Positions 8,708-38,718 of a DNA stretch of 64,000 nt are shown piece after piece. Position numbers and translations under genes: made by a program. The stretch's first letter is position 1; every line of letters begins with the position of its first letter. This DNA comes from Acidimicrobiia bacterium (GTDB lineage: Bacteria > Actinomycetota > Acidimicrobiia > IMCC26256 > DASPTH01). The notes below the pieces were generated by a model. The model had not been told where the DNA came from and made no database searches. It saw nothing but the letters and a program-made list of their open reading frames with translations. Location: NCBI GenBank assembly GCA_036502765.1, contig DASXXX010000031.1, positions 56,696-120,695 of the forward strand. Direction: 5' to 3'.

Positions 8708-8879
8708 GATCGCCGGGTCCGAGTGATCGCTGATTCCATCCGTGGTCGGCCGACGCTGCGACGGCAGCGCGTGCGAGAGTATGCGACTGAACAAGAGTAG
8801 TGCAGTTGTGTATGTCGCTCGACCTGCGACAACACCCGCGTCGACATTCCGTCGGCCATGCGATGACCGGGTGACGAAC

Positions 8880-8919
8880 GGAGGAGGATCGGCCCAGGGG
8901 GGTGTGCCGATCCTCCTCC
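8880..8919 (-). terminator. Strong hairpin downstream of the amidohydrolase/NTF2 operon
   Basis: Perfect 14-bp stem GGAGGAGGATCGGC / GCCGATCCTCCTCC with a 12-nt loop, 65 nt after the NTF2-like stop. There is no U-tract. Confidence 0.5.
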
Positions 8920-8983
8920 GTCGAACGCAGCGATGCCCGGGGCGAACCCCAGGCATTGCCGCGAATCCTCGTCGCCTGAGCCG

Positions 8984-22206: not shown

Positions 22207-22300
22207 GCAGACCCCCCACGTGAAAGCGACTCGGCGTCGGCCAGCGAGCGCCGCGATCGATCGTAGCCGCTGAACGTGCAGAGCGACAGATGATGTCCTA

Positions 22301-24556
22301 TTGTTCCGTCCGATGGGGCCGACACCTTTTCTCTCCGGCCTGTCCGTGCTCGAGTTCGGCGACGGCGTCGCGGGGGCGGTCGCCGCCGGCACGCTCGCAC
22401 TGCTCGGGGCCGACGTCACCAAGGCGATCGAAGATCCACCCCGGCTCGCCCGCCACCAGCCGATGTTGGATCACGTCGGCGTTCCGCCCTGGCCCTTGCT
22501 GCCGTCGGTGCTCGACCGTTCGAAGCGACTCGTCGCGGCCGACGATCCGCGAGTGCACAACCTCTCGATCACCGCCGACATCGTCATCGACGACCGTGTC
22601 GACGGCATCGACGACGCCGAGACGTATCTCCGGCGAGTCGGCGAACGCAACCTGTCGGTCTGGCTCACGATCTCGCCGTTCGGCCTGAGTGGTCCTCGAA
22701 CTGCACGTCGAGGAGGTGAGCTGATCGCGCAGGCGGCGGGTGGTCTCCTTTCGACCATCGAACCCGTCGGTGGCGGGCGCCCGACGTCGCCGCCAGGGTT
22801 CGTCGCATTGCGCGCCGTCGGCCATGTTGCCGCGTTGGCGGCACTCCACGGGATCGACCGGTTCCGTGGCGACGGCTGCCCAACGCACGTCGATGTGTCT
22901 GCACAAGAAGCGGTGGTCTTCACGGGCGCGCTCCCGGAGTGCGCACACCTCTTGTTCCGGTGTCCCGGGCGCGCCGGGAGCGGACGGTACGTCGCGCCGT
23001 CGGGTCTCTTCCCATGTCGCGACGGACTGGTGCGCATTGCCGCCATCGAGGACCACCAGTGGAAGGGCATGGTCGCATGCCTCGGCACTCCCACCTGGAC
23101 CGAGGGCCTCGAGACCCGCCCGGCCCGAGCCGAGCACGCCGCGATGATCACCGAGCGGGTTGGCGAATGGAGCGCGCAGCAACGCAAGGCCGAATGCGCG
23201 GATCTCCTCCAGCGCAACGGTGTGCCGTCGACGCCGGTGAACGGTCCTGACGAACTGCTGACTTCGACGCAGTTCCAGAGCCGCGGGTTCCTGGTGCAAA
23301 CCGACGTCGACGGCGTGCGCGCGACGGTTCCCGGAGCGCCGTGGGTCGTGACGACGGTGGACCCCGCCCGTCGGGTGGGGCCGGCATCGCAGACTCCCGT
23401 GCCGCCACGGCTGGCGGGCCTCCGTGTGACCGAGCTCACGCACGTGCTCGCCGGTCCCATCGTCGGCTCCCTGCTCGGCGCGATGGGCGCCGACGTCGTT
23501 CGCCTCGAAGACGAACGTCGCCTCGACATCTACCGTCGAACCGGACCCTTCGCCGAAGGAGTCGCCGGCGTCGAACGAGGTGCCTACTTCGCGGCCGCGA
23601 ACTTCTCGAAGCGCAGCGTCGTGGCGGGCGCCGAAGAGATGGACGCCGCCGTCGCGCTCCTCCTGGACCGCACCGACGTCGTCATCGAGAACATCGGCCG
23701 TTCCCGCCTCGAGCGACTCGGTGTGCTCCCGGAGAAGGTGACGCACGAACACGACGCCCTGTTCCTGCACGTCTCCGGGTTCGGTACCGATGGACCCCTC
23801 GCCGAGTACCGCGTCTACGCGAACAACGTGCAGGCGTACGGAGGTCTCGCTCACCTCACCCGGGATGCACAGGGCGAGCCGGCACACCTGGCGACGGTGC
23901 TGGCCGACCCGCTCTCTTCGGTCGTGGCGGCAACGGCCGTCGCGGCGTGGGCGCTCGGACCTCAACGGGGTACGGGCGTCGACGTCGACCTGTCGATGGC
24001 CGAAGTGGTCGCGAGTCTGCTCGGCGAGTTCGTCGCCGAAGCATCCGCCAGCCGGAGTGTCACGGTGCCACTCGGAAACACGCTCGCACCGTTCTCGCCC
24101 CACGGTGTCTTCGCGTCTCGTGACGAGCGTTGGTTCGCGGTGGCGGTGCAGGCGGACGACGAATGGCGTCGCCTCGTCGACGCCCTCGACCACCCACCCG
24201 AGTTGACCGAGTCCAGATGGAATCGCGAGCCCGAACGATGGCGCGAACGCGACGTGATCGAGCGATGTCTGGCCGACGTGATCGCTCGATGGGACGCCGA
24301 CGCGCTCGACGAGGTGCTTGCCGCGGCCGAGGTGCGCGCGGCGGCGGTGCATCGTGCAGTCGACCTCCTCGCCGACGACCATCTCCGCGACCGGGGCTTC
24401 TTCCCGGCGTTCGCCCATCCCGACCCGGATCTGCACGATGCCCGCCTCGTCGGCATGCCGTGGCGCCTGGTGGGGGAGGGTCCTCTTGCGCAGGGCGCGC
24501 CTCCGCATCTTGGCGACGCCAACGCCGACTTCGACGTGAACGGGATGAGACGGTGA
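22301..24556 (+). CDS. Tandem two-domain family III (CaiB/BaiF) CoA-transferase fusion
   Basis: 751-aa ORF with two complete N-terminal signatures. The first is LSGLSVLEFGDGVAGAVAAGTLALLGADV (aa ~11). The second is LAGLRVTELTHVLAGPIVGSLLGAMGADVVRLE (aa ~371, nt ~23410). An alternative start exists at ATG 22313. Confidence 0.85.
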   Translation: MFRPMGPTPFLSGLSVLEFGDGVAGAVAAGTLALLGADVTKAIEDPPRLARHQPMLDHVGVPPWPLLPSVLDRSKRLVAADDPRVHNLSITADIVIDDRVDGIDDAETYLRRVGERNLSVWLTISPFGLSGPRTARRGGELIAQAAGGLLSTIEPVGGGRPTSPPGFVALRAVGHVAALAALHGIDRFRGDGCPTHVDVSAQEAVVFTGALPECAHLLFRCPGRAGSGRYVAPSGLFPCRDGLVRIAAIEDHQWKGMVACLGTPTWTEGLETRPARAEHAAMITERVGEWSAQQRKAECADLLQRNGVPSTPVNGPDELLTSTQFQSRGFLVQTDVDGVRATVPGAPWVVTTVDPARRVGPASQTPVPPRLAGLRVTELTHVLAGPIVGSLLGAMGADVVRLEDERRLDIYRRTGPFAEGVAGVERGAYFAAANFSKRSVVAGAEEMDAAVALLLDRTDVVIENIGRSRLERLGVLPEKVTHEHDALFLHVSGFGTDGPLAEYRVYANNVQAYGGLAHLTRDAQGEPAHLATVLADPLSSVVAATAVAAWALGPQRGTGVDVDLSMAEVVASLLGEFVAEASASRSVTVPLGNTLAPFSPHGVFASRDERWFAVAVQADDEWRRLVDALDHPPELTESRWNREPERWRERDVIERCLADVIARWDADALDEVLAAAEVRAAAVHRAVDLLADDHLRDRGFFPAFAHPDPDLHDARLVGMPWRLVGEGPLAQGAPPHLGDANADFDVNGMRR

Positions 24557-24813
24557 CGGCCACGAGACTTGACGATGTTGCCGCCGAGATGTGGGCCGCA
24601 ACGTGGATCTCGGGACCATGCCCGGTCGAAGGCTTCGGGAATGACGACGGCTACGCCGTGGCGTGGGTCCAGGTGGATGACGGACCGCGACTCCAGGCGC
24701 TCGTCGCCGGCGCGAACGCTCCTGCGCCCGGAACGCGCGGCTGGGTGAACCGCCACCTCGTCGGCGACGAATCCATCGACGTCTTCAGCGCGCGGGTTGG
24801 AACGTCGGAGTGA
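24553..24813 (+). CDS. Short DUF35-like OB-fold protein lacking the zinc-ribbon half
   Basis: 86 aa read from a GTG overlapping the upstream stop (GTGA). The segment GYAVAWVQVDDGPRLQALVAG...GTRGWV resembles the C-terminal OB-fold of DUF35 proteins. There is no CxxC. Its stop overlaps the start of the next thiolase-like gene. Confidence 0.55.
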   Translation: MTATRLDDVAAEMWAATWISGPCPVEGFGNDDGYAVAWVQVDDGPRLQALVAGANAPAPGTRGWVNRHLVGDESIDVFSARVGTSE

Positions 24814-25937
24814 TGTCAGCATGGGTCATCGGTGCCGGGATGCTGCCGTGCGGCAGGCACTCCGACACGCCGCTCCACGAGCTCGGTGCCGAGGCAGCAC
24901 GCCTCGCACTCGACGACGCGGGACTTCCGTACGACCAGGTCGGCGAGGTGTTCACGTCGTCGATGCTCGCACCGCCACAGACCGCTCTCCGGGTTGCCCA
25001 CTCGCTCGGTCGCACGGGAGTCCCCGTGACCGCGATCGAGAGTGCCTCGGCCGGAGGACTGGTGGCATTGCGTCATGCTGCGTGGGCGGTGTGGTCGGGC
25101 CGCTGCGAGACCGCGTTGGCCGTCGGGTACGAGAAGTCCACGATGCTCGAGCCGGGTGGTGTCGTCCCCAAGCCTCGAGACGTGTGGGACCTGTTCCCAC
25201 CGCAGCTCAGCTACGCGATCGACGCGACCCGGTTCCTGTACGAACAGGGACAGGGTCCAGAGCTGTTCGCCGCGGTCGCAGCGAAGTCATGGAACTGCGC
25301 GGCGCGCAACGAGCTCGCCGCACGGCGACCCGATCACGAGGTCACGATCGAGGAAGTGCTCGGGGCGAGGATGGTGGCGACGCCGCTCACTCGCATGATG
25401 TGTCACGCCTCCGTCGACGGTGCGGCCGCGGTCGTCGTGTCACGGGATGCCGTGCCGGAGGCAGTCGAACTGCTCGCCGTCGAGCAGACCAGCCTCGTGG
25501 AAGATGCGAGTTGGCCTCGCGTCGGACCGACCATCGGTCCGCCTTCGCAGACCGCTCGCACCGCGCGGCGGGCATTCGAGATCGCGGGCATCGCGCCGAG
25601 TGATGTCGGGATCGTCTCGTTGCACGACATGTGCGCCAGCGAGGAAGTGGTGACGCTGGTGGAGCTCGGGGTCTGCGACGCCGATGAGATCGCCGACCTC
25701 GTGTTCAGCGGTGGGCTCTCGGTCAAAGGTCGGTTGCCGACCAACGTCGACGGAGGGTGTCTCGCTCGCGGTCATCCGATGGGTGCGACTGCCTTGGCGC
25801 AGACCGTCGACGTCGTCCGGCAGCTCCGGGGCCGTGCGGCGGCGCGACAGGTCGCCGACGTGCACACCGGTGTCGTGCAGACGGTCGGCGGCGGTGGGTC
25901 CGCGGCGGTCGCGGTGTTGCGCCGCTCGGACGTGTGA
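24810..25937 (+). CDS. Thiolase-superfamily protein (SCP-x/Ltp-like), nucleophile Cys apparently absent
   Basis: 375 aa with a thiolase-like N-terminus WVIGAGMLPCGRH and VPVTAIESASAGGLVALRHA where thiolases carry ..C(A/S)(S/T)G. It is paired with the DUF35-like gene. Confidence 0.8.
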   Translation: MMSAWVIGAGMLPCGRHSDTPLHELGAEAARLALDDAGLPYDQVGEVFTSSMLAPPQTALRVAHSLGRTGVPVTAIESASAGGLVALRHAAWAVWSGRCETALAVGYEKSTMLEPGGVVPKPRDVWDLFPPQLSYAIDATRFLYEQGQGPELFAAVAAKSWNCAARNELAARRPDHEVTIEEVLGARMVATPLTRMMCHASVDGAAAVVVSRDAVPEAVELLAVEQTSLVEDASWPRVGPTIGPPSQTARTARRAFEIAGIAPSDVGIVSLHDMCASEEVVTLVELGVCDADEIADLVFSGGLSVKGRLPTNVDGGCLARGHPMGATALAQTVDVVRQLRGRAAARQVADVHTGVVQTVGGGGSAAVAVLRRSDV

Positions 25938-26710
25938 TCGTGGGATCAGCTGCTCGGGTCACGCTCGTCACCGGGGCGGGATCCGGCATGGGGCGCGCCC
26001 TGTGTGAACGGCTGGCGGCGCGAGGCGAGGCAGTCGTGGCTGTCGACATCGACGGTGCGAAGCTCGCGTGGACCGACGGATGGGCGGCGGTCGTCCCCCA
26101 CACCGCAGACGTCACCCATGAGGATGACAACGACGCGATGGTCGCGTTCGCGGTCGACCAGTTCGGTGGTCTCGACGCCGCCGCGCTGAACGCCGGGATC
26201 GATGTCGTCGGGACGGTCGACCAGCTGCCGATGGAGCGGTTCGATCGCGTGCTCGACGTCAATCTCCGCGGCGTGGTGCTGGGCATCCGATCGGTCATCC
26301 CGGCCCTGCGGGCCCGCGCCGGCGGTTCGATCGTGGTGACGTCGTCGATGGGTGGGTTGGTGGGGCAGGTCGGTCGGTCCGCGTACGGCGTCGCGAAGGC
26401 CGGCCTCGTGAACCTGGTGAAGACCGTTTCGCTCGAAGTCGGCCACGAGCGGATCAGGATCAACGCGGTGTGCCCGGGACCCATCCGCGACACGGACATG
26501 AGCGCGGGGTTCGACGTCCGCCATCCTGACCTGTACCGCGAGTTCGCCAACCGCACTGCACTCAAGCGCTTCGGCAGCGCCGAAGAGGTCGCAGCGGTCA
26601 TGGACTTCTTGCTGTCGCGCGCCGCGTCCTATGTCACCGGAGCCGCGGTCCCCGTCGACGGCGGAACGACTGCGGGTGCGGCATTGGATCAACCGCTGGG
26701 CAACCTCTGA
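25934..26710 (+). CDS. Short-chain dehydrogenase/reductase (SDR)
   Basis: VTLVTGAGSGMGRALC and YGVAKAGL. GTG 25934 overlaps the upstream stop. The 3' end overlaps the convergent ABC fusion gene by 22 bp. Confidence 0.85.
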   Translation: MIVGSAARVTLVTGAGSGMGRALCERLAARGEAVVAVDIDGAKLAWTDGWAAVVPHTADVTHEDDNDAMVAFAVDQFGGLDAAALNAGIDVVGTVDQLPMERFDRVLDVNLRGVVLGIRSVIPALRARAGGSIVVTSSMGGLVGQVGRSAYGVAKAGLVNLVKTVSLEVGHERIRINAVCPGPIRDTDMSAGFDVRHPDLYREFANRTALKRFGSAEEVAAVMDFLLSRAASYVTGAAVPVDGGTTAGAALDQPLGNL

Positions 26711-29634
26711 GCGGTCGGCGCCGCGGCACCGAGGTACGCGGCGGTCAGCTGGTGCAGGTCGGCCTCGGCCCGAGGCCCGCACCACACGATCCTGCCGAGC
26801 TCCATGTAGGCGATCACGTCCGCGATCTCCAGCGCGTTGCGCGCGTGTTCTTCGACGAGGAGCACGGCACATCCCCGATCCCGCAACTCCTCGATCGCTC
26901 GCATCACGACATCGGCGGCGAGTGGCGCGAGGCCGAGAGTCGGTTCGTCGGCGATGAGGACGTGAGGAGGATCGGCGAGGGCGGGGGCGAGGCTCAGCAT
27001 CTGCTGTTCGCCACCGGAGAGAAGCCCGGCGGTCTGCTTCCGCCGTTCCCGCAGGATGGGGAACCGATCGAAGGCGAGCTCCCGGAGGGCAGGATCCCGG
27101 AGGAGCACGGTGAGGTTGTCCTCGACGGTGAGCCCCGGGAAGATGCCCCGTGCCTCCGGCACGAGTTGCACCCCGAGCTTGCGGGCGCGGTCGAAGGGCA
27201 TCATCTTCGTGATGTCGTCGCCGTCGACGACCACCTTCCCGGTCTGGGCGTCCACGAGCCCGCTGGCAACCGCACAGAACGTCGACTTCCCGGCTCCGTT
27301 GGCTCCCAAGAGCGCAACGATCGTGCCGGGCGCGATCCCGAGCGTCACACCGTGGAGCACTTCGACGTCTCCGTAACCTGCGACCACACGCTCGAGGGAC
27401 AGCGCCGCGCCATCGAGGGTCGCCGCGCCGGTGGGGTCCGCGGGCCCAGGTCGGCCGCTCGTGTGCTGCTGTTCGTGTTCGGGGACCTCGCCTCCGTGCA
27501 CCTCGGCCTCGATGCGCTCGATGGCTGCTTCGCGCTCCTTCTTTCGGCGCTTGGCGAGGCGTTGTTGGCCGGAGAGCGCCAAGATCCCGTCGGGTTCCTG
27601 GGCGAGGTTGATCGCTCCGAGGCCGGACAGGATCGCCACGAAGTAGATGGAGTTCATGAGGTCGGTGACCGAGCCCTGCGGGAGGATGTCGGTCGCGAGC
27701 CAGTGGAAGATCGCGGGCGAGCACGCCAGCGCGAAGCCGGCGAGCAGCGCGCCGCCGGGTCGACGGATCCCGAAGGTGACGGCAAGGGACAGCCAGAAGA
27801 GCGTGACGTAGGGGCCGGCGCTCTTGTCGGTGAAGATGAACGTCTGCATGCCGAGGAACGCTCCGGCGAAGCCGGCGAGCGCGCCCGAGAACGCGAAGAG
27901 CAGGATCTTCGATCGTCCCGAGCGGATGCCGGTCGCCTCCGCGGCGACTTCCGAGCTGCGAACCGCGTACGTCGCCCGACCGGACGGCGAGCGCATGAGT
28001 GAGTGGATCAGGAGCGTGGCGACGCCGAAGATCACCAACATCACCAGGATCTGGTCTTCGACGCGCGCGAGGTCGATGATCGGTTGGGGACCCTTCACGA
28101 GCAGGTCGTTGATCCAGTTCAAGCCCGGGATGTCGATGGTGGGGGTGCGGATGGCCCAGCCGCTCGAGTCGTTGTTGAATCCGTTCTGGCTGAAGATCAA
28201 CACGTCCGCGGAGAACGCGAGCGCGAGCGTGCCGATCGCGAGGCTCGCTCCGCTCAGGCGCCGCACCGGGATTGCGACCAACGCGCCCGTGGCCGCGGCG
28301 ACGATCGCGCCGAGGAGCGCGGCGAGCAGGAAGTTGAGTTGGCCGTGGGTGGCCACCAACGGCAGGTCGAAGCCCCAGTCGTAATTCAGGGCCCAGCCCG
28401 CGGTCAGTCCACCGGCGGTGACGAAGGTCGCCTGCGCGAGGCTCACCATGCCGCCCATGCCGGTGATGACCACGAACGACAGAAAGATCAGCCCCATGGT
28501 CAAGCCGAGGACGATGAGTCCCTGCTCGTAGGAGTCGGCCTGCAGTGCGGGAACGTTGATCCAGTCGAGTGAGAACGCCACGAGGCAGATCGTCGCGATC
28601 ACCCATGGCAGCCGGCGCCGCCACGGCGGGAGCCCGGTGCGGTGGTCGGGGCGGGGAACGTCGTCGGCGACCGACCCGGCCTGCCGGTCGCGCTTGCGCG
28701 ACGAGACCCAGAAGAGCAACAAGAGCAGGGTGATGACGTACGGCACGGACGAGCGGAGACCGCTGAGGTTGGCCAGGAAGTCGGGAAGCACCTCGGTGCT
28801 GTAACCGGCGACGAGGTTGGCGACGATGCCGAGGAGGAGCCCGCCGACGAGGGCGATCGGGATCGAGCGGAGCCGCGCCAGCGCGACGGCGGCCAGCGAC
28901 CCGAGCACGATGAAGGTGATCGTCGTCTCGTCGAGTGAAAACAGCGGAGCGATCAGCACGCCACCGAGTCCGGCGAGGATCATCGTGAGGATCCACGCGA
29001 CCGCGGAGCTGCGTGCGGCATTGACGCCACGGAGCTGGGCCAACTGCTCGCGGTCGACGACGGCGCGCATCTCGAGGCCGATGCGGGTGCGCCGGAGCAC
29101 GAACCAGAGGAGGATCGCGGCGACGACTGCGCAGATCAGCACCGCGAGCTGGTCGGTGTTCAACGCGATGTGGTCGCTGATCCTGATGGTCTTCGCCGGC
29201 GATGGGCCGATCCCGGGGGGTTGGACGTTGCCCTGGTCTGCCTTGTTCGTGGGCAATCCGAGATCGAAGAGCCCGTTGCCCACCGCCTCGACGAGCCAGT
29301 TCGTGAGACTCGGCAGTGCCACCAGGAGACCGATCGTGCCGACGATCCGCGCGTAGACGGGAGCGTGTGCAAGTCGACGGAGCAGGATCCGGTCGAGGAA
29401 CAACCCGAGCAGGGGAGCGAAGACGAACACCGAGATGATGAGCGAGGGCACGATCGGGATTCCCTGGCCGACGTGCAGTTGGTAATAGAGGTACGCGACG
29501 GTGAACGCGACCGCGCCGTGCGCGAAGTTGAAGATGCCCGACGTCTGGTAGGTGAGGACGAGCCCTGCCGCCATGATGGCGTAGATCGAGCCGGTGACCG
29601 CGCCTGAGATGACGATGTCGATCAGCTTGTTCAT
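26689..29634 (-). CDS. ABC transporter triple fusion: LivH-like permease + LivM-like permease + LivF-like ATPase
   Basis: 981 aa read from ATG 29634 (AGAGGA upstream). LivH-like part: N-terminal MNKLIDIVISGAVTGSIYAIMAAGLVLTYQTSGIFNFAHGA. LivM-like part: central ITGMGGMVSLAQATFVTAGGL. LivF-like part: C-terminal VAGYGDVEVLHGVTLGIAPGTIVALLGANGAGKST ... LSGGEQQMLSLA ... LIADEPTLGLAP. Confidence 0.85.
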   Translation of the reverse strand: MNKLIDIVISGAVTGSIYAIMAAGLVLTYQTSGIFNFAHGAVAFTVAYLYYQLHVGQGIPIVPSLIISVFVFAPLLGLFLDRILLRRLAHAPVYARIVGTIGLLVALPSLTNWLVEAVGNGLFDLGLPTNKADQGNVQPPGIGPSPAKTIRISDHIALNTDQLAVLICAVVAAILLWFVLRRTRIGLEMRAVVDREQLAQLRGVNAARSSAVAWILTMILAGLGGVLIAPLFSLDETTITFIVLGSLAAVALARLRSIPIALVGGLLLGIVANLVAGYSTEVLPDFLANLSGLRSSVPYVITLLLLLFWVSSRKRDRQAGSVADDVPRPDHRTGLPPWRRRLPWVIATICLVAFSLDWINVPALQADSYEQGLIVLGLTMGLIFLSFVVITGMGGMVSLAQATFVTAGGLTAGWALNYDWGFDLPLVATHGQLNFLLAALLGAIVAAATGALVAIPVRRLSGASLAIGTLALAFSADVLIFSQNGFNNDSSGWAIRTPTIDIPGLNWINDLLVKGPQPIIDLARVEDQILVMLVIFGVATLLIHSLMRSPSGRATYAVRSSEVAAEATGIRSGRSKILLFAFSGALAGFAGAFLGMQTFIFTDKSAGPYVTLFWLSLAVTFGIRRPGGALLAGFALACSPAIFHWLATDILPQGSVTDLMNSIYFVAILSGLGAINLAQEPDGILALSGQQRLAKRRKKEREAAIERIEAEVHGGEVPEHEQQHTSGRPGPADPTGAATLDGAALSLERVVAGYGDVEVLHGVTLGIAPGTIVALLGANGAGKSTFCAVASGLVDAQTGKVVVDGDDITKMMPFDRARKLGVQLVPEARGIFPGLTVEDNLTVLLRDPALRELAFDRFPILRERRKQTAGLLSGGEQQMLSLAPALADPPHVLIADEPTLGLAPLAADVVMRAIEELRDRGCAVLLVEEHARNALEIADVIAYMELGRIVWCGPRAEADLHQLTAAYLGAAAPTAQRLPSG

Positions 29635-29755
29635 GCGTCCTCTGCGTGCTCGAACCGCTGTCGACCGCGACAGCCGGTGCCTTCGCGTTCCGTGGTCATG
29701 GCCCCCCAGCGCATCGACGCAGGTGTTCGCAATCATGTCGCGACGAGGCGCAACA

Positions 29756-29801: not shown

Positions 29802-30881
29802 TCAGCGATTCCGGAGCCAGTCCGCCACCGCGTCCCGGTGGCCGCCACGCCCACCGAGCAGCGCGGCAAGGACGGCGGCGCGGCGAAGGAACACGTGCGC
29901 GACGTGCTCCCACGTGTACCCGATGCCCCCGAAGACCTGGATCACGCCCTCCGGCACCGACCTCAAGGAATCCACGGCCCAGAAGGCCGCCAAGGACGTC
30001 AGCGCCGCGGCATCCGCCGCTTCTGACTCCACTGCGACCGCGGCACGCGCGACGAGTGCGCGGCTGACCTCGATGGCCGCCCGCTGGTCCACGAGTCGGT
30101 GCTTGATCGCCTGGAACGAACCGATCGGGCGATCAAACGCCACGCGGTGCTTCGCGTAGTCGACGCCGAGGGCATTGGCGCCGGCCGCAACGCCCGTCAG
30201 CTCGGCGGCCCATCCGAGGGTGAGCCGCTGCATCGTTGCCGCCCATCGGTCGACGGCTTCGTCGCCGAAGGCAATGACCTCGTCGTCGGAGGCCGTCACG
30301 TCATGGAGCTCGAGCGAGACGCTCGGCATCGCGTCGAGCGGGCGGAGCTCGGAGCGCTCGACGCCGATGGACTCGGTGGCGATCTGGAGGAGCGTCGCCG
30401 TGCCGTCTGGTCGCCGGGCGTGCACCAGCATTCGTTCGGCGACGTCGCCGTAGGGCACGAACCCATGTGACCCGGACACCACGACCTTGGCGCCTGCTTC
30501 GAGCGTCGCGGGTGTCGGCGACGGGACGGGGACGATCCCGACGGTTCCTTCCGTCTGGGGTCGTCCGGTGCACCAGTTCCCGACGGCGACGGGCACAAAG
30601 GGGATCGGCGCCGTCGACGCGCCGATGGACTCCGCGATCACGCAGAGGTCCGGCACGGTCCCCCCACCGTCTTCGGCCTCGAGCAGGATGTCGGCCCATC
30701 CGAGTCCGGCAACGGTGTGCCAGAGACCGACAGCCCAGGTCGGCGCCTCCGCGTCGAGCAGGTCGCGCGAGCGGTCCGCGGACCACTCCCGCGCGAGGAC
30801 GTCGTCGGCCATGGTTCGCACCGCGGTGAGATGCTCGGCCGCGTCGGCAAGCGCGAGGAGAGAAGCCGAGTCAGCGGTCAC
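29802..30881 (-). CDS. Acyl-CoA dehydrogenase family protein, beta-like partner subunit
   Basis: 359 aa, shorter and divergent, with an ACAD C-terminal helical-domain-like sequence (FQAIKHRLVD...). Its GTG start overlaps the end of the upstream ACAD by 11 nt. Confidence 0.8.
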   Translation of the reverse strand: MTADSASLLALADAAEHLTAVRTMADDVLAREWSADRSRDLLDAEAPTWAVGLWHTVAGLGWADILLEAEDGGGTVPDLCVIAESIGASTAPIPFVPVAVGNWCTGRPQTEGTVGIVPVPSPTPATLEAGAKVVVSGSHGFVPYGDVAERMLVHARRPDGTATLLQIATESIGVERSELRPLDAMPSVSLELHDVTASDDEVIAFGDEAVDRWAATMQRLTLGWAAELTGVAAGANALGVDYAKHRVAFDRPIGSFQAIKHRLVDQRAAIEVSRALVARAAVAVESEAADAAALTSLAAFWAVDSLRSVPEGVIQVFGGIGYTWEHVAHVFLRRAAVLAALLGGRGGHRDAVADWLRNR

Positions 30882-32115
30882 GGGGAAGTCCGAGGAGCTT
30901 TTCGCCGATCACGTTGCGCTGGATCTCGGAGGTGCCTGCGCCGAGTGTTGCGGCCCGCATCAGCAGGTAGCTCTTGGCGACGTTGCCTCCCTTGGCGGCT
31001 CCGTCGGAACCCCGTTGCAGCGTGCCGCTGACGCCTGCCATCTCCAGCCCGAAGTTGGCCATCGCCTGGTCCACCTCGGACGTCAGCAGCTTCGCGACCG
31101 AGGCTTCGGGTCCCGGAGCCGTGCCGCGAACGCCGGCGGCGGTTGCCTGCGCTGATATCTGGCGCAACGCCTCGACTTGCGCGGCGAATCGCACGAGGTG
31201 GTCGAGCGTCCACGGGTCGTCCATCGGGCAACTCCCGTCGGCTGCCGGGTCGGTTGCCGGCTCGGTTGCCATGGCGAGGAGGATCGCGAGTCGTCGTTCG
31301 ATCCGGTGCGTCCGACTCTGGCCGACGCGTTCGTATCCGAGCGTCGAGTTCGCGACCCGCCATCCCGCATCCACCGGACCGACGACGTTGGCGAGTGGCA
31401 CACGGACGTCGGTGAAGAACACCTCGTTGAACTCGGCGGTTCCGGTGATCTGGCGGATGGGGCGGATCTCGATGCCCGGTGTGCGGAGGTCGACGAGGAG
31501 GAAGCTGATGCCTTCGTGCTTGGGCGCGTCCGGATTCGTGCGGGCGAGGATGTAGATCCAGTCCGCGTACTGCGCCTTCGACGTCCAGATCTTCTGCCCG
31601 TTCACGAGGAAGTGGTCGTCGACGAGCTCCGCGCGGGTGCGCAGCGATGCGAGGTCACTCCCGGCGTCCGGCTCGCTGAACCCCTGGCACCAGACGTCAG
31701 CAGCGTTCAGGATCCGAGGGAGGTAATGCGCACGTTGCGTGTCGTCGCCCCACTGGATGATGGTCGGACCGAGCTGGTTGACGGCGCTGCGGTTGATCGC
31801 ATCCGGTGCGCGGTGGCGAGCAAGCTCCGCATTGAACACCAGCTGTTGCACGACCGTCGCGCCTCTCCCTCCGTGGACGACCGGCCAGCTCACCGCCGCG
31901 AGTCCCGCCGCATGGAGACGCCTCTGCCACTCGCGCAGCAACGCGACACGCTTGGCTTCGGATCGCTCCCGACTCGCGCTGACCAGCTCCGATGTCAGCT
32001 CGGTCTCGAGGAACGCGAGCACCTCGTTCCGAAACTCGCGGTCTTCCGGCGCGAGAGGAACGCCGAAGTCGTCGACGTCGCGACGGGACCCACCGGCGCG
32101 AGATCCGACCGTCAC
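30871..32115 (-). CDS. Acyl-CoA dehydrogenase, alpha-like subunit
   Basis: QGFSEPDAGSDLASLRTRAE, FLVNGQKIWTSKA, LGYERVG and C-terminal GAGTSEIQRNVIGEKLLGLPRD. Confidence 0.9.
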   Translation of the reverse strand: MTVGSRAGGSRRDVDDFGVPLAPEDREFRNEVLAFLETELTSELVSASRERSEAKRVALLREWQRRLHAAGLAAVSWPVVHGGRGATVVQQLVFNAELARHRAPDAINRSAVNQLGPTIIQWGDDTQRAHYLPRILNAADVWCQGFSEPDAGSDLASLRTRAELVDDHFLVNGQKIWTSKAQYADWIYILARTNPDAPKHEGISFLLVDLRTPGIEIRPIRQITGTAEFNEVFFTDVRVPLANVVGPVDAGWRVANSTLGYERVGQSRTHRIERRLAILLAMATEPATDPAADGSCPMDDPWTLDHLVRFAAQVEALRQISAQATAAGVRGTAPGPEASVAKLLTSEVDQAMANFGLEMAGVSGTLQRGSDGAAKGGNVAKSYLLMRAATLGAGTSEIQRNVIGEKLLGLPRDR

Positions 32116-32180
32116 GTTCCTTCCGACGACGTGCTCGTGCTTTCGAGCGCCACGTCGGAAGGGTCGGGAGCCATGGCGGT

Positions 32181-32212
32181 ACTGTATGACATCTCATGTA
32201 CAGAAGTACAGT
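32181..32212. promoter_or_regulatory. 32-bp AT-rich divergent promoter/operator element (copy 2)
   Basis: ACTGTATGACATCTCATGTACAGAAGTACAGT is 27/32 identical to 10867-10898. It contains the 12-mer TATGACATCTCA, which is also present as its reverse complement at 62146-62157. Confidence 0.55.
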
Positions 32213-32242
32213 GCGGTGGCGCCAAGCGAATGCTGCGGAGGA

Positions 32243-33133
32243 ATGCTCGTGGCCGACCAGGACGAGTTCGAGATCGACGAAGACTGGGTGCTCTACGACG
32301 TCGTCGCGCCACACATCGCTCGCATCACGATCAACCGGCCCGAACGTCGGAATGCGATCCTCTCGCCGGACATGCACGGGTTGTTCGAGGATCGCCTGCG
32401 CCGAGCCGAGAACGACGACGACATCAAGGTCGTCCTCCTCACGGGCGCCGGATCCGACTTCTGCGCCGGCGACGACGTGCGTCGCCTCCCCGTCGAGCGA
32501 GCCGGCCTCGAGAGGGGCTCGAAACTGCCCCAGACCGCCAGGATCGCCAACGCCCGGCGTCTCCACCGCCACCTGACCAACTGGCTGGAGTTTCCCAAGA
32601 CCGTGATCGCCGTCTGCCAGGGCACGACGCTCGGGGCCGGCTTCAACCTCGTGCTCGCTGCGGACCTCGTCATCACGGCAGAAGGAGCCACCTTCGGCCG
32701 CCCGCAGGCGCGGATCGGCTTCGCCGGCTTCAGCACCGCGATGCCGCTCGTCCTGTTGAAGCTGGGTCCGAACCGCGGGTACGAAGCGATGATCACCGGT
32801 CGACGCATCACGGCCGAAGAGATGCGGGACTGGGGCGTCGTCTCATCGATCGTTCCGGCCGCCGACCTCGAAGCAGAAGCGATGCGCTACGCGCAGGCGA
32901 TCGCTCACCATTCCGCCGACGGGCTGATGATCGGGAAGCAGGCGCTCATCACCTTCTGGCACGGCGTCGGCATGGCCGAGTTCGGCGACTGGGTGCAGAT
33001 GGCGCACCCGCTGTTCACGAACCTCGTCTGGCGCGATGACGAGTTCAACTTCTTCAAGGAACGGGGCGAGCGTGGCGCCAAGGGCGCGCTCACCGAGTTG
33101 CAGCGCCGCTATGCGGAGTGGGGCTTCGAGTAG
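32243..33133 (+). CDS. Enoyl-CoA hydratase/isomerase (crotonase fold)
   Basis: ARITINRPERRNAI ... VVLLTGAGSDFCAGDD. ATG 32243 directly follows GGAGGA, so the start is uncertain by a few codons. Confidence 0.85.
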   Translation: MLVADQDEFEIDEDWVLYDVVAPHIARITINRPERRNAILSPDMHGLFEDRLRRAENDDDIKVVLLTGAGSDFCAGDDVRRLPVERAGLERGSKLPQTARIANARRLHRHLTNWLEFPKTVIAVCQGTTLGAGFNLVLAADLVITAEGATFGRPQARIGFAGFSTAMPLVLLKLGPNRGYEAMITGRRITAEEMRDWGVVSSIVPAADLEAEAMRYAQAIAHHSADGLMIGKQALITFWHGVGMAEFGDWVQMAHPLFTNLVWRDDEFNFFKERGERGAKGALTELQRRYAEWGFE

Positions 33134-33211: not shown

Positions 33212-34117
33212 ATGGGGTTACTCACAGGACGCACCGCGGTCGTCACCGGGGCCGGACGTGGGATCGGTGCAGCCGTGGCCGTCGGCCTGGCGGCAGAGGG
33301 GGCATCGGTCCTCGTGTCCGACGCCGGGGTCGGAGTCGACGGGACCGGCTGCGACGCCGGACCGGCCGAAGCAACCGCAGCGCTCATCACTGCAGCAGGC
33401 GGCATCGGAGTCGCCGACGCGACCGACGTCACCGACTTCGACGCGTGCGGTCGCTTGATCGAACGCGCAGTCGGAGAGTTCGGACGGCTCGACATCCTTG
33501 CGAACGTCGCCGGGATCCTGCGCGACAGCATGATCTTCAAGATGCACGAGAGCGACTGGGACGCCGTCATCGACGTGCACCTCAAGGGCACGTTCAACAC
33601 GACGCGACATGCGTCGCAGTGGTGGCGCGAGCACCGGGGCGGTCAGTACCGCTTGATCAACTTCACCTCGTTGTCCGGGTTGCAGGGCGCGCCGAGTCAG
33701 CCGAACTACGCCGCCGCGAAGCTCGGCATCGTCGGCCTCACCTACTCGTGCGCCAACAGCCTCCGCAACTATGGAGTCACTGCCAACGCGGTCGCTCCCG
33801 TCGCGGGGACGCGCATGACCCAGGGCATCGGAAGTGGACGCGCGAGTCTCGACTACTCGGCCGAAAACCCGCGGCTTGCGCCTGAGAACGTCGTACCGCC
33901 GGTGCTCTACCTCGCGTCGGAGCGTTCAGAGTGGCTGAATCGGCGGATCATCTTCGCCGGCAACGGGCGCATCTCCCTGTTCTCGAATCCGGTCGTCGAG
34001 CGGGAGATCGTCTCCGAGTCCGGCACGTGGGACAACGAGACGGCGTTCGCCGAGATGGAGGAGTCGTTCAAGAGCGCGATCCTGTGGCCGAACTTCTTCG
34101 ACAAGCCCCGCGACTGA
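33212..34117 (+). CDS. SDR resembling the dehydrogenase domain of MFE-2/17beta-HSD4-type (3R)-hydroxyacyl-CoA dehydrogenases
   Basis: TAVVTGAGRGIGAAVA, AGILRDSMIFKMHESDWDAVIDVHLKGTFNTTR and YAAAKLGIVGL. Confidence 0.8.
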   Translation: MGLLTGRTAVVTGAGRGIGAAVAVGLAAEGASVLVSDAGVGVDGTGCDAGPAEATAALITAAGGIGVADATDVTDFDACGRLIERAVGEFGRLDILANVAGILRDSMIFKMHESDWDAVIDVHLKGTFNTTRHASQWWREHRGGQYRLINFTSLSGLQGAPSQPNYAAAKLGIVGLTYSCANSLRNYGVTANAVAPVAGTRMTQGIGSGRASLDYSAENPRLAPENVVPPVLYLASERSEWLNRRIIFAGNGRISLFSNPVVEREIVSESGTWDNETAFAEMEESFKSAILWPNFFDKPRD

Positions 34118-34121
34118 CGCC

Positions 34122-35354
34122 ATGGGTGCGTTGGACCACATCCGCATCTGCGACTTCGGCGGACAGCTCGCCGGAGCCGGTGCGACGAAACTGCTCGCCG
34201 CGTTCGGCGCCGAAGTGATCCGCGTCGAGGATCCGACCACGCAGGGACGCTGGGACATGATGCGCGTGGTCGGGCCGTACGTCGACGAACGTCGCGGTGT
34301 CGATCTCGGCGGCGGCTTCAACAACCACAACGTCAACAAACTCGGCGTCACGATCAACCTCCGCGCGCCGGAGGGTCCTGCCCTGCTGGAGAAGCTGCTC
34401 GCGGTGTGCGACGTCGTGACCGAGAACTTCGCCGCCGGAGTCCTCGACCGTCTCGGATTCGGCTACGAGGCACTCGCCGCCATCAAGCCCGACATCATCT
34501 ACGTCTCGAATTGCGGATTTGGCCACACCGGTCCCCACAGATCCTTCAAGACCTGGGGGCCCGTCGTGCAGGCGGTCAGCGGACTGACGTTCAACAACGG
34601 ACTTCCCGACGAGGAACCCGCGGGCTGGGGCTTCTCGTACATGGACCACGGCGCCGCGGGGTTCATGGCGATCGCCATCCTCGCCGCGCTGCATCACCGC
34701 GAGGTCACGGGCGAGGGACAGTGGGTCGACCTCGCGAGCACCACCGCGGGCATCACGATGCAACGCACCGCCGTCCTCGACTGGACCGTCAATGGCCGGC
34801 CGTCGCGACGCCCCGGGCAACCCAACGGCAACCACGCCGACTTCGACGCGATGGCACCTCACAACATCTACGCCGCGCTCGGCGACGACCGATGGGTCGC
34901 GCTCGCTTGTCGTGACGACGACGACTGGCGGGCGCTCTGCGACCTCGTCGACGACGACGATGCGCGTGCCGGCCGATTCTCGGGCCTCGCGGGCCGACTC
35001 GAACACCAGGACCAGCTCGACGAAATCATCGGGCGCTGGGTCGGCGGGCGTGAAGCCGGCGCCGCCGCGAGCGAGCTCGTCGCTGCGGGCGTTCCTGCCA
35101 GCGTCGTGAAGAGCCCTCGCGAACGGATCGACGAAGATCCCGACCTCGACGCCTGGGGGCTCTTCCCGAGCGTCGACCATCCGTTGATGGGTGAGGTGCG
35201 AGTCGAGGGGGTTCCGCTCCACTTCTCGGAGACGGACTGGTCCATCGACAAGGCCGCGCCGCTCCTCGGTGAGGACAACGACCGGATCTTCCGCGAGCTC
35301 CTGGATCTCGACGGCGCCGAGCTCGAACGCCTGCGATCCGAAGGGGTCGTATGA
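34122..35354 (+). CDS. Family III CoA-transferase (type A partner)
   Basis: IRICDFGGQLAGAGATKLLAAFGAEVIRVEDP, and later VSNCGFGHTGP and SYMDHGAAGFMAIAILAAL. Confidence 0.9.
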   Translation: MGALDHIRICDFGGQLAGAGATKLLAAFGAEVIRVEDPTTQGRWDMMRVVGPYVDERRGVDLGGGFNNHNVNKLGVTINLRAPEGPALLEKLLAVCDVVTENFAAGVLDRLGFGYEALAAIKPDIIYVSNCGFGHTGPHRSFKTWGPVVQAVSGLTFNNGLPDEEPAGWGFSYMDHGAAGFMAIAILAALHHREVTGEGQWVDLASTTAGITMQRTAVLDWTVNGRPSRRPGQPNGNHADFDAMAPHNIYAALGDDRWVALACRDDDDWRALCDLVDDDDARAGRFSGLAGRLEHQDQLDEIIGRWVGGREAGAAASELVAAGVPASVVKSPRERIDEDPDLDAWGLFPSVDHPLMGEVRVEGVPLHFSETDWSIDKAAPLLGEDNDRIFRELLDLDGAELERLRSEGVV

Positions 35355-36607
35355 GCTCCCTCTCCGGCCTCCGCGTGCTCCAACTCGTCGACGAGCGCAC
35401 CGTGGACGCCGGACGCATCCTCGCCGAGCTCGGAGCCGAGGTCGTTGTCGTCGAACCCGCCGGTGGTTCGCCGCTTCGCGACGAACCACCGTTCGTCTCC
35501 GATGAGCCAGGGCCTGAACGCAGTCTTCGCTGGTGGGCCGGAGCGGCTGGGGCCCGCAGCATCGAGCTCGACCTCGAGGGCGACGGGCTCGCCCTGTTCG
35601 ACGCGCTCCTCGACGCCAGCGACCTCGTGCTCGAGGGTCGCGGGCACGCGCTCGACGCGGTCGACGCCGGCTGGGACGCCCGCGGACGAACGCGGCCGTC
35701 GCTCATCTGGGTGTCGATCACGCCGTTCGGACGCAACAGCGTCCGTGCCGACGATCCTGCCACCGACCTCACGCTGCTCGCGGGCGGCGGACCCGTCTGG
35801 AACTGTGGCTACGACGACCACTCGATTCCGCCCATGCGCGGCAAAGGCAACCAGGCCTACAACATCGGTGCGATGTATGCGGTCATCGGAGCGCTGACCG
35901 CACTTGCGCACCGAGATCGGACCGGCCGTGGTCAGCTCGTCGACGTCAACATCAACGCCGCGTGCAACGTCACCGCAGAGCACGTCACGTACAACTGGCT
36001 GGTCGTCCAGAGTGTGATGAGCCGCCAGACCGGCCGACATGCCAGCTCCGCACCCACCGCCCCCGTGCAGGTCCGCTGTGCGGACGGCCGTTATGCAACC
36101 ACGGGTGTCCTGCCGAGATCTCCTGCGGAGTTCGGGCGGTTGCGGGCATGGCTCGACGAGCTCGGGCTGCTCGACCGTCTCCCCGAGGCCGTCTTCCTGG
36201 ATCTGGCGGCACGGCGCACGGAGACGGTCGAGATGGTCGATGTCGCCAGTGATCCGGAAGTTGCCGCCATTCTGGCTGCCGCGAGAGACGCAATGACCCT
36301 CATCGCCTCCGAACTCCCCGCCTACGACTTCTACGTCGCCAGTCAGCAGCACGGGTTCCCCTGCGGCGCGGTCGTCTCACCCGACGAAGCGTTCGAGGAT
36401 CCGCAGTTCGCCGCCCGTGGATTCGTTCACGAGGTCGATCATCCGGAACTGGAGCGGCCGTACCGCGCACCGGGCGTGGCGTACGTCTTCAGTGCGAGTC
36501 CGTGCCCGGCACCCGAGCGTGCTCCGCTCCTGGATGAACACCGCGACGAGTTGCTCGGTTCGATGCTCACGCGAGAGGACGAACGTTGGATCCGTCGCCA
36601 GCGATGA
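35351..36607 (+). CDS. Family III CoA-transferase (type B partner)
   Basis: The ATG overlaps the upstream stop (ATGA). LRVLQLVDERTVDAGRILAELGAEVVVVEP, then ITPFG...ATDLTLLAGGG. Clearly divergent from its neighbour. Confidence 0.9.
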   Translation: MSSLSGLRVLQLVDERTVDAGRILAELGAEVVVVEPAGGSPLRDEPPFVSDEPGPERSLRWWAGAAGARSIELDLEGDGLALFDALLDASDLVLEGRGHALDAVDAGWDARGRTRPSLIWVSITPFGRNSVRADDPATDLTLLAGGGPVWNCGYDDHSIPPMRGKGNQAYNIGAMYAVIGALTALAHRDRTGRGQLVDVNINAACNVTAEHVTYNWLVVQSVMSRQTGRHASSAPTAPVQVRCADGRYATTGVLPRSPAEFGRLRAWLDELGLLDRLPEAVFLDLAARRTETVEMVDVASDPEVAAILAAARDAMTLIASELPAYDFYVASQQHGFPCGAVVSPDEAFEDPQFAARGFVHEVDHPELERPYRAPGVAYVFSASPCPAPERAPLLDEHRDELLGSMLTREDERWIRRQR

Positions 36608-37053
36608 ATGCGGACGACAACCGCTTCACGCACGTGGGGTTGTGTGTCTCAGACCTCGACCGTTCGGTCACGTACTACTGCGACGTGCTCGGCTTCACCG
36701 AGGTCGCGCGCCGCTTGAACGTCACCGATGACGGCTCGGCCCGCCTCCTCGGACTCTCGTCGCTGGACGTGGAGCTGGTCTACCTGCAGCGAGATGGAAT
36801 CCGCATCGAACTGCTCTGGTACCGCGTGCCGGGCCACGACGGAGACGGGTCGCCGCGGCAGATGAATCTCCTCGGCCCCACCCACCTCGCGTTCCGCGTC
36901 GGCGACTTCGACGAGCTCTGCCAGAAGATCGAAGCCGCAGGTGGTTCGGTGCTGCCACAGACGATGACGACGTTCGGCTATGGCAACCGCGGCGTCATGA
37001 CCCTCGATCCGGACGGCATCCGCGTCGAGCTCATCGAACGTCCGCAGTCGTGA
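36604..37053 (+). CDS. VOC-family protein (glyoxalase/epimerase/dioxygenase fold)
   Basis: FTHVGLCVSDLDRSVTYYCDVLGF ... GPTHLAFRVGDFDELCQKIEAAGG. ATGA overlap with the upstream stop. Confidence 0.8.
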   Translation: MNADDNRFTHVGLCVSDLDRSVTYYCDVLGFTEVARRLNVTDDGSARLLGLSSLDVELVYLQRDGIRIELLWYRVPGHDGDGSPRQMNLLGPTHLAFRVGDFDELCQKIEAAGGSVLPQTMTTFGYGNRGVMTLDPDGIRVELIERPQS

Positions 37054-37529
37054 CTGCAGGACCGCAGCGCATGACGCTCGACGACGGGTCGTACCGGCCC
37101 GTACCCGCGATCAACGACCGCGACGCTCCGTATTGGACAGGAGGCGAACGCGGTCAACTCATGTTGCAGCGGTGTCGCAGTTGCGACCACGTCATCCACC
37201 CACCGGTCCTGCTGTGCCCCTGGGACCGTTCGCCAGACCTCGAATGGGAGGCGATGAGCGGGCGGGCCACGGTCGAGTCGTTCACCGAGAACCTGCACCC
37301 GTTCCTGCCCGGCTTCCCCGTACCGTCCGTCATCGCCCTCGTCGATGTCGAGGAGGATCCCACCGCGCGCATCCTGACCAACCTGATCGAGGTCGACGCC
37401 GCCGACGTGGCCATCGGCATGGCTGTCGAGGTCGTGTTCCAGCGACTCGAGTCCGACGACGGTCCCGACGTGTACCTCCCGCTGTTCCGGCCGCGTGGTC
37501 CCGTGACCGCCACTCACGGGGGAGACTGA
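37050..37529 (+). CDS. DUF35 OB-fold/zinc-ribbon protein
   Basis: PYWTGGERGQLMLQRCRSCDHVIHPPVLLCPWD is followed by an OB-fold-like ATVESFT...VIALVDVEEDPTARILTNL. GTGA overlap with the upstream stop. Confidence 0.85.
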   Translation: MTAGPQRMTLDDGSYRPVPAINDRDAPYWTGGERGQLMLQRCRSCDHVIHPPVLLCPWDRSPDLEWEAMSGRATVESFTENLHPFLPGFPVPSVIALVDVEEDPTARILTNLIEVDAADVAIGMAVEVVFQRLESDDGPDVYLPLFRPRGPVTATHGGD

Positions 37530-37530
37530 C

Positions 37531-38718
37531 GTGGTCGATCGCTTCGAACCCAAGGTGATCGTCAGCGGCATCGGCCAGTCACAGGTCGCACGCCGCATCG
37601 GTCGCGACCCGCTGCTGCTGACCGCCGATGCCTGCCTCGCCGCCATCGCCGATGCCGGGCTCGAGCCCGGCGCCATCGACGGCCTCAGCACCTACCCCGG
37701 TTCCAGCCAACCCGGCCCCGGCTTCAGCGGAGGCTCGATCCGCGAGGTGCACGACCTCCTCGGCCTGCATCCGAGATGGGTGTCGGGCGGGATCGAGCTC
37801 CCCGGCCAAGCGGGCGCAATCGTCAACGCCATGCTGGCCGTCGCCGGTGGAATCGCCGACCACGTGCTCTGCTGGCGCAGCATCTGGGAGGGCACTGCGC
37901 AAGGCAGCGGCGGCCGCAAAGGGTACGGCGCGGGCGCCAAGCGGGTCGACGGAGTTGCCGCATGGGAGCTGCCGTACGGCGTGACTGCACCGTCACTCGC
38001 GGCGATGCACATCCGCGCTCGGATGGACCGCTACGGCCTGACGCGCGAGCAGTTGGGCGCGGTGCCGATCGTGACGCGCGCGAACGCGGGCCTCAATCCG
38101 AACGCCGTGTACCGCGATCCGTTGACCCTCGAGGACTACCTCAACGCGCGCATGATCTCCTCGCCGTTGTGCCTCTTCGACTGCGACGTCCCGTGCGACG
38201 GCGCAACCGCATTCGTCATCTCGCGCGCGGAGCACGCCACGTCTCTTGACCATGCCGCGATCGGGGTCGAGGGCGTGAGCTGCGCACACGACGATCGATT
38301 CATCTGGCAATACGGCCAGGACATCACCCGCATCAGTTCGCGGTGGGCGAGCGACGTCTGGGAACACACGACGCTCACGCCCGCCGATGTCGACGTCGCA
38401 CAGCTCTATGACGGCTTCAGCATCATCACCCACTGTTGGCTCGAGGACTTCGGGTTCTGCGAAGTCGGCGAAGCCGGAGCGTTCGTCGAGGGCGGCACGC
38501 GGGTGGCCCGCGACGGGCAACTCCCGGTCAACACCGGCGGTGGGCAGTTGTCGGGAGGTCGTCTCCACGGGTTCGGCTTCCTCCACGAGGCATGTCTCCA
38601 GTTGCGCGGTGAGGGAGGCGACCGCCAGGTCGCCGGCGACCCTGAGGTTGCTGCGGTCGGCGTCGGAGCAGGGAACAGTGGCACGACCGCGATGCTCGTC
38701 ACGCGCGGCATTCGATGA
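37531..38718 (+). CDS. Thiolase-superfamily protein (Ltp/SCP-x-like), nucleophile Cys apparently absent
   Basis: 395 aa with N-terminal VIVSGIGQSQVARR. The region where thiolases carry the Cys reads IELPGQAGAIVNAMLAVAGG. Located 1 nt downstream of the DUF35 gene. Confidence 0.85.
   Translation: MVDRFEPKVIVSGIGQSQVARRIGRDPLLLTADACLAAIADAGLEPGAIDGLSTYPGSSQPGPGFSGGSIREVHDLLGLHPRWVSGGIELPGQAGAIVNAMLAVAGGIADHVLCWRSIWEGTAQGSGGRKGYGAGAKRVDGVAAWELPYGVTAPSLAAMHIRARMDRYGLTREQLGAVPIVTRANAGLNPNAVYRDPLTLEDYLNARMISSPLCLFDCDVPCDGATAFVISRAEHATSLDHAAIGVEGVSCAHDDRFIWQYGQDITRISSRWASDVWEHTTLTPADVDVAQLYDGFSIITHCWLEDFGFCEVGEAGAFVEGGTRVARDGQLPVNTGGGQLSGGRLHGFGFLHEACLQLRGEGGDRQVAGDPEVAAVGVGAGNSGTTAMLVTRGIR

Follow-up and report, generated by a model that had tools for sequence, protein, structure and literature searches.

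In homodimeric CoA-transferases of family III, such as Frc, YfdW, CaiB, SUGCT and the protein of PDB entry 4ed9, two identical active sites are distributed over two chains. A different arrangement is found in BbsEF, the succinyl-CoA:(R)-benzylsuccinate CoA-transferase (PDB entries 9fn0, 9fol and 9fun), which is built from two polypeptides and is reported to be an alpha2beta2 enzyme. In the bbs operon of anaerobic toluene degradation, this transferase is encoded along with the BbsG dehydrogenase, the BbsH hydratase, the BbsCD short-chain dehydrogenase/reductase (SDR) and the BbsAB thiolase (PMC10818641), and the terminal succinyl-CoA of the pathway serves as the CoA donor for BbsEF. Furthermore, a two-domain class with tandem CoA-transferase domains in one polypeptide, a poorly conserved linker and a conserved Asp in the C-terminal domain was recognized in 2018 (PMC6006322). 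Its two characterized members are the CoA-transferase/lyase DddD and PtmU4, which is involved in thioacid formation (PMC6006322; PMC7174347) and converts an acyl-CoA to a thiocarboxylic acid in a reaction for which Asp430 of its C-terminal domain is essential (PMC6006322). Here we describe a two-domain family III gene located at 22313..24556 on the + strand of a 64,000-nucleotide stretch, hereafter the window, of an Acidimicrobiia bacterium (GCA_036502765.1, contig DASXXX010000031.1, positions 56,696 to 120,695). We regard it as reasonably probable that this gene encodes the single-chain equivalent of a heteromer like BbsEF, with one functional site, feeding a bbs-like module. With the members of the two-domain class the protein has in common the tandem domains, the unconserved linker and the Asp of the C-terminal domain (D532), and hence the premise of the original prediction that the family is known only as obligate dimers of separate chains is outdated, and the novelty it implied was overstated. 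The tandem architecture is already recognized and widespread, and the clade described here is an uncharacterized member of it.

The reading frame is open from TTG 22301, giving 751 aa, and the NCBI call for the same sequence starts at ATG 22313, giving 747 aa; residue numbers used here refer to the ATG start, and addition of four converts them to the TTG numbering of the original prediction. No stop codon intervenes between the halves, which form a single open reading frame (ORF), and the GC content by codon position (0.77/0.51/0.80) is typical of a coding sequence in a window of about 67% GC. The whole protein scores 364.7 bits with the Pfam family CoA_transf_3 (PF02515) against a cut-off of 23.3, which places it in family III. 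The presence of two complete but divergent domains in one chain, proposed from the sequence, was borne out by the profile search at scores that rule out chance, and both matches are nearly full length: aa 11-352 (TTG numbering) of the N-half align to positions 1-350 of the 366 in the profile (145 bits, E 4.3e-42) and aa 371-739 (TTG numbering) of the C-half to positions 1-364 (225 bits, E 2.3e-66). In the ATG numbering, the N-terminal domain covers aa 7-348 (22331..23356, + strand) and the C-terminal domain aa 367-735 (23411..24517, + strand), the latter start agreeing with the earlier estimate of nt ~23400. Between the two halves, identity amounts to only about 26% (BLASTP E 1e-9 to 3e-6). 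The 19-residue linker between them (aa 349-367; 23357..23413, + strand) is unconserved, with none of its 19 columns reaching 90% conservation, and here the predicted local distance difference test score (pLDDT) declines to 72-83. An antisense ORF of 773 aa at 22298-24619 (- strand), arginine-rich and covering the whole CoA-transferase gene, is a shadow ORF typical of high-GC DNA and not a gene.

The 747-aa chain, modeled by AlphaFold2 from a 104-row orthologue alignment, is predicted as one confidently packed body, given a mean pLDDT of 93.8 and a predicted TM-score (pTM) of 0.95 over the whole chain. Solved family III chains superpose on this model in Foldseek over about 394 columns, corresponding to one domain length, with a target-normalized TM of 0.85. 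The top matches are BbsEF chains, led by 9fn0_D/B, with 28-29% identity for the best-aligned half, and 9fn0_B is also the best PDB sequence match of the C-half (E 1.1e-34). BbsEF is the closest solved relative of both halves, and like the fusion it combines one Asp-bearing and one Asp-less subunit type, as seen in residue pattern, HMM scores and tree.

The two halves differ at the column of the nucleophilic Asp (Frc D169/BbsEF D178), where the C-half has D532 and the N-half, with Leu166, lacks it. Asp532, the predicted nucleophile, is encoded by a GAC codon at 23906..23908 (+ strand), is equivalent by alignment to BbsEF D178 and is invariant in 104/104 orthologues. The title of PDB entry 9fol describes a D178-CoA adduct of BbsEF, and residue counting in HMMER alignments places D178 in the chain-B-type sequence (motif TNYTD178H), with Ala at position 178 of the chain-A-type sequence. 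Catalytic columns were further compared by aligning 13 N-halves and 13 C-halves with six references in MAFFT. In this alignment, Asp occupies the nucleophile column in all 13 C-halves, in 9fn0_B, in 4ed9 and in two single-domain CoA-transferases of the window, genes 34122 and 7553; Leu is found in 12 of the 13 N-halves and Asp in none, with Tyr in 9fn0_A and in the third single-domain protein of the window, gene 35351. About 30 residues upstream, a second column bears Glu136 in 103/104 N-halves and Asp in 9fn0_A and 35351; the same column has Ala503 in 104/104 C-halves and Gly in 9fn0_B and 34122. Because the patterns at the two columns are mirror images, one chain reproduces the division of labor of the BbsEF heteromer and of the split pair 34122/35351, which lies 12 kb from the fusion. 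Assignment of the catalytic Asp to the Glu136/Ala503 column, by which the N-half would be the live one, was considered and is ruled out by the D178 title of 9fol and by residue counting in the 9fn0 alignments. The C-half, which shares the fold and the catalytic Asp with homodimeric family III enzymes, is therefore predicted from sequence to be the catalytic half, and the degenerate N-half is probably a retained pseudo-subunit that supplies the lid. In contrast to the two identical sites in two chains of the homodimers, this single chain would presumably have one site.

Profile comparisons and conservation follow the same division. A profile of C-halves scores 176 bits with 9fn0_B and 160 bits with 34122, as compared to 68 with 9fn0_A and 34 with 35351; for the N-half profile, 9fn0_A is the best reference (90 bits), by a small margin, and 35351 the lowest (50.6 bits). 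In a neighbor-joining (NJ) tree of half-domains, the N-domains of two-domain proteins group with 9fn0_A and 35351 and the C-domains with 9fn0_B and 34122, though with weak bootstraps, and the pair of 35351 and 9fn0_A has a bootstrap of 74. In the 104-sequence alignment, columns at least 90% conserved make up 45% of the C-half large domain and 50% of the N-half linker-1/small domain, but only 22% of the N-half large domain and 12% of the C-half linker-1/small domain. Maintenance of the large domain of the C-half and the small domain of the N-half, with relaxation of the other two, fits one live active site across the interface, and the sequence record in this way points to the parts under selection, namely the large catalytic domain from one half together with the lid domain from its partner. 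A Gly-rich loop, CPGRAGSGRY (aa 217-226; 22961..22990, + strand), opens the linker-1/small-domain stretch of the N-half with invariant columns. Elsewhere the model has no low-confidence segment, whereas here the pLDDT falls below 50 at residues 223-225; the loop may act as a mobile lid of the single active site. Invariant polar residues of the N-half are H179, H212, C217, R225, Y226 and the HQW motif at 248-250. As to the covalent pseudo-heterodimer suggested in the original prediction, its asymmetry is upheld by the distribution of the Asp, the reciprocal conservation and the confidence of the model; that the halves interlock within the chain would follow from the pTM and from homology.

The CoA-transferase gene heads a + strand operon with three 4-nt GTGA overlaps, at 24553, 24810 and 25934, leading to an OB-only DUF35-like gene, a thiolase-like gene and an SDR gene, just as had been described from the sequence. 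The first of these encodes an 86-aa putative OB-fold protein (24553..24813, + strand), whose start overlaps the stop of the CoA-transferase gene and which resembles the C-terminal domain of DUF35 proteins. It scores 19.7 bits with the Pfam family OB_ChsH2_C, under the 27.1 cut-off, and 6 of its 16 orthologues match this family (best 1.6e-5). An AlphaFold2 model built from a 3-row alignment gives a five-strand beta structure with a pLDDT of 83, whose top fold matches, with marginal E values of 2e-3 to 0.1, are the DUF35 chains 6ok1_B, 6esq_F, 5m3k_E, 9myr_B and 7pxp_B, belonging to partners of thiolase-like enzymes (ChsH2, the DUF35 protein of archaeal thiolase/HMGCS, PhlB, Shy and BbsA). The 86-aa protein has no Zn-ribbon sequence, and neither an hhalign comparison of the OB family with the full DUF35 of the window nor a PDB profile search gave a match. 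In two database proteins (P0013 and P0115) and at locus L027 (8001-10289), the CoA-transferase continues in frame at its C-terminus into an OB domain, and such fusions are a Rosetta-stone hint of association. The following gene (24810..25937, + strand) encodes a 375-aa thiolase-like protein of the SCP-x/BbsB type, closest to SCP-x-type thiolases and BbsB (7pxp_C, 1.5e-33), with Ser in place of the nucleophilic Cys (IESASAGG) in 51/51 orthologues examined. Like Ltp2, it may catalyze a retro-aldol or some other non-thiolytic reaction. A thiolase-like paralogue in the cluster of the split pair (37531-38718, + strand) likewise lacks the Cys. The last gene of the operon (25934..26710, + strand) encodes an SDR oxidoreductase of 258 aa, as assigned by Pfam/NCBIfam scans.

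Gene context was reconstructed from ORFs, Pfam matches and 59 genome loci. Of 57 related loci, mostly from mycobacteria, 50 preserve the order of CoA-transferase, OB-fold and thiolase-like genes, and in the mycobacterial loci an acyl-CoA dehydrogenase pair lies directly upstream of the fused CoA-transferase, with hydratase, SDR and P450 genes nearby. The window has a PimD/PimC-like acyl-CoA dehydrogenase pair at 29802..32115 (- strand), identified in NCBIfam scans with all scores under curated cut-offs: 29802-30881 resembles PimD (small)/IpdE2 and 30871-32115 resembles PimC (large). This likeness hints, at the level of sequence, at dicarboxylyl-CoA substrates. ORF 31739-33133 (+ strand) overlaps the dehydrogenase pair, and only its last ~295 aa, from about 32240, represent a real enoyl-CoA hydratase. 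The neighbors here are thus bbs-like, with a thiolase resembling BbsB and an OB-fold protein resembling BbsA along with an SDR, an acyl-CoA dehydrogenase and a hydratase. Unlike in the bbs system, however, the transferase is one fused chain, there is no nucleophilic Cys in the thiolase-like partner and no Zn ribbon in the DUF35 partner, and the hosts are Acidimicrobiia and mycobacteria instead of anaerobic toluene degraders.

The fused protein probably carries out the activation step for a beta-oxidation module of the bbs type. In the proposed mechanism, the two halves would most likely pack together like the two subunits of a family III dimer, so that the single site would be formed by the large (Rossmann-like) domain of the C-half with the nucleophile Asp532, covered by the small domain and the Gly-rich loop of the N-half; the reciprocal site, composed of the N-half large domain and the C-half small domain, would have lost its Asp and be decaying. 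CoA would be taken from a donor thioester via an Asp532 anhydride/thioester intermediate and passed to a free acid, and the activated acid would then enter a bbs-like beta-oxidation by the PimCD-like dehydrogenase pair, the enoyl-CoA hydratase, the SDR and the thiolase-like protein with its OB-fold DUF35 partner. The probable CoA donor would be the acyl-CoA that the module releases in its final step, and such CoA recycling is proposed by analogy, since the gene set parallels the bbs operon, in which the released succinyl-CoA feeds BbsEF. As for the acid, a dicarboxylic or substituted succinate-type compound would be our guess; the best NCBIfam similarities of the CoA-transferase are to succinate--glutarate and succinyl-CoA:mesaconate CoA-transferases, far under their cut-offs. 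Interlocking, transferase activity, donor and substrate are what we infer from these comparisons. A more tentative extension, which we consider possible but rather doubtful, is that in Acidimicrobiia and many mycobacteria the CoA-transferase, the OB-fold mini-protein and the Cys-less thiolase-like protein form one complex, in which the OB-fold protein would tether the last enzyme to the first, the released acyl-CoA would be handed to the live site (CoA recycling by channeling) and the dead N-half would be kept as lid and substrate-selecting wall.

Several points weigh against the single-chain BbsEF-like transferase. The intramolecular interlocking of the halves is deduced from the pTM and homology; the NJ bootstraps joining the halves to the BbsEF chains are only 23-30; loci from Gemmatimonadota and Deltaproteobacteria lack the OB-fold and thiolase-like genes; no curated NCBIfam cut-off is reached by the CoA-transferase, which leaves it without a substrate assignment; the two characterized two-domain enzymes, DddD and PtmU4, catalyze more than simple CoA transfer (PMC6006322); and with a Cys-less thiolase-like partner, the pathway may end in a retro-aldol or other step and hence use another CoA donor. 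Concerning the arrangement of the halves, the unconserved 19-residue linker would also allow a swapped dimer or a higher oligomer, in which N-half and C-half of different chains interlock, and the alpha2beta2 organization reported for BbsEF offers a precedent; the confidence with which the monomer is modeled as one body (pTM 0.95) argues against such a swap, and we hold it to be quite improbable. That both halves are active, making a bifunctional enzyme with two different active sites, could be argued from their being complete domains and from a minority of other two-domain families with Asp in both halves. With Asp at the nucleophile column in 0/13 sampled N-halves, and the large domain of the N-half being the less conserved one, this has only a very slight chance of being correct. 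Finally, the source is a metagenome-assembled genome, and adjacent split pairs with 4-nt overlaps are known elsewhere, so that two separate genes could have been joined by mistake in the assembly or through a frameshift. Such an artefact is, however, practically negligible, since the same two-domain architecture recurs in more than 100 orthologues (690-750 aa), including those encoded in complete Mycobacterium and Mycolicibacterium chromosomes, and the identical 747-aa protein is found on three independent contigs, namely in NCBI as HEY3669620.1 (P0001; 'MAG TPA: CoA transferase [Acidimicrobiia bacterium]') and on two JGI contigs.

A different question is whether the family III scaffold serves chemistry beyond plain CoA transfer, as in DddD and PtmU4. 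These have two domains as well, and their Asp likewise lies in the C-terminal one; the invariant polar residues of the N-half listed above could serve a second reaction. The closest solved relatives, BbsEF and SUGCT, are nevertheless true transferases. Compared by description only, PtmU4 has an acyl-CoA synthetase partner, whereas here no PtmA3-like acyl-CoA synthetase gene adjoins the CoA-transferase gene to make up a 'thioacid cassette': the neighbors are an opposite-strand ABC ATPase gene and the OB-fold, thiolase-like and SDR genes, and the AMP-binding genes of the window are located more than 20 kb away. Likewise by description, DddD belongs to a context of dimethylsulfoniopropionate (DMSP) catabolism, whereas among the scanned neighbors here there is neither a sulfur-carrier nor a DMSP gene, and the NCBIfam scan of the CoA-transferase returned no DddD model. 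Chemistry of this kind is accordingly judged unlikely. Alternatively, the protein could racemize or isomerize CoA esters in the manner of alpha-methylacyl-CoA racemase (MCR), also a member of CoA_transf_3, which is retrieved in both the fold and the sequence comparisons. The MCR matches are much weaker (E 1e-9) than those to transferases (1e-34), making a racemase very improbable. At the position of the MCR catalytic His126, the C-half, as placed by eye, presumably has Tyr502.

A BbsEF-like division of labor also exists within the window in unfused form, in a second cluster at 33212-39548 that encodes an SDR, CoA-transferase 34122, CoA-transferase 35351, a VOC protein, a full DUF35, a thiolase-like protein and an SDR. 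Gene 34122 (34122..35354, + strand) encodes a single-domain protein of the catalytic type, and gene 35351 (35351..36607, + strand) one of the non-catalytic type, with Tyr in the nucleophile column and 9fn0_A as the best PDB match. This pair therefore comprises the same two subunit types as the fusion and, similarly, has DUF35 (here full), thiolase-like and SDR genes downstream; in the fusion, however, the non-catalytic domain precedes the catalytic one, whereas in the pair the catalytic gene comes first, a reversal of order that had been correctly noted. The resemblance of the C-half to 34122, proposed from shared motifs, holds in the Asp at the nucleophile column, the absence of the upstream acidic residue and the 160 bits to the C-half profile. 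For the N-half and 35351 it holds for the subunit type, given the column pattern and the NJ clade, but direct similarity is weak, being limited to a 32-aa local BLAST match and the lowest score of any reference with the N-half profile. The motifs quoted for these resemblances, I(S/T)PFG and (D/E)L..A.GG in the N-half and 35351 and VQA..GL in the C-half and 34122, were found as stated. Opposite order and only about 24-29% identity to the fusion halves mark the split pair of the window as a distant paralogue from which the fusion did not arise, in agreement with the earlier exclusion of a simple read-through of this pair. A third family III CoA-transferase of one domain, which has the catalytic Asp, is encoded at 7553-8956 (- strand); the start of this ORF is probably over-called, because an extension of ~88 aa precedes the domain.

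Elsewhere, same-order split pairs are found. On plasmid 3 of Variovorax sp. SRS16 (L062 5605-8090), a non-catalytic gene is followed with a 4-nt overlap by a catalytic one and then by genes for a thiolase and a Zn-ribbon OB-fold protein, and on a Qingshengfaniella plasmid (L063 5644-7985) the non-catalytic and catalytic genes are arranged in the same order with a 4-nt overlap. Such pairs make it plausible that the fusion originated by read-through or stop-codon loss in a same-order split pair. The Variovorax cluster also contains an 847-aa two-domain CoA-transferase. When 1.84 billion cluster representatives were searched with the N-half alone, 127 were retrieved at E <=1e-30, and the best 150 matches are nearly all proteins of 650-850 aa with two matched stretches. 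Apparent single-domain matches of 413-415 aa (P0154 and P0156) proved to be truncated fusions. Since two-stretch proteins dominate and the short matches are truncated fusions, N-half-type domains occur essentially only in fusions. Among ~125 two-domain representatives, nearly all C-domains bear the Asp and most N-domains do not, in agreement with the position of the essential Asp430 of PtmU4. Fusions of reversed order were hinted at by eight representatives with the best N-half-like stretch in the C-terminal part, and this was dismissed when the tree placed the N-domains of the three sampled (P0195, P0235 and P0242) with other N-domains. Fused forms of 672-695 aa, annotated 'CoA transferase', are present in catabolic clusters on megaplasmids of Mycobacterium branderi and Rhodococcus, with 39-43% identity over the matched stretch. 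Nothing known on family III is overturned, since tandem and heteromeric forms were already described; the clade would rather provide a natural example of the passage from a homodimeric family to a heterodimer with one dead subunit and further to a single fused chain. Dozens of mycobacterial species have the clade conserved alongside an OB-fold protein and a thiolase-like protein of unusual type, and its characterization would annotate a widespread catabolic module.

Among the remaining genes of the window, the AMP-binding ORFs of the acyl-CoA ligase type at 44712-47033 (- strand) and 53004-55310 (+ strand), each of ~770 aa, have no Pfam match in their first ~245 residues, and for this reason their starts are probably over-extended. 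In ORF 26689-29736 (- strand; 1015 aa), two permease domains of the LivH/LivM type are joined to an ABC ATPase domain, and this fusion is kept at 82-92% identity in three related loci from metagenome-assembled genomes (L001, L002 and L006).

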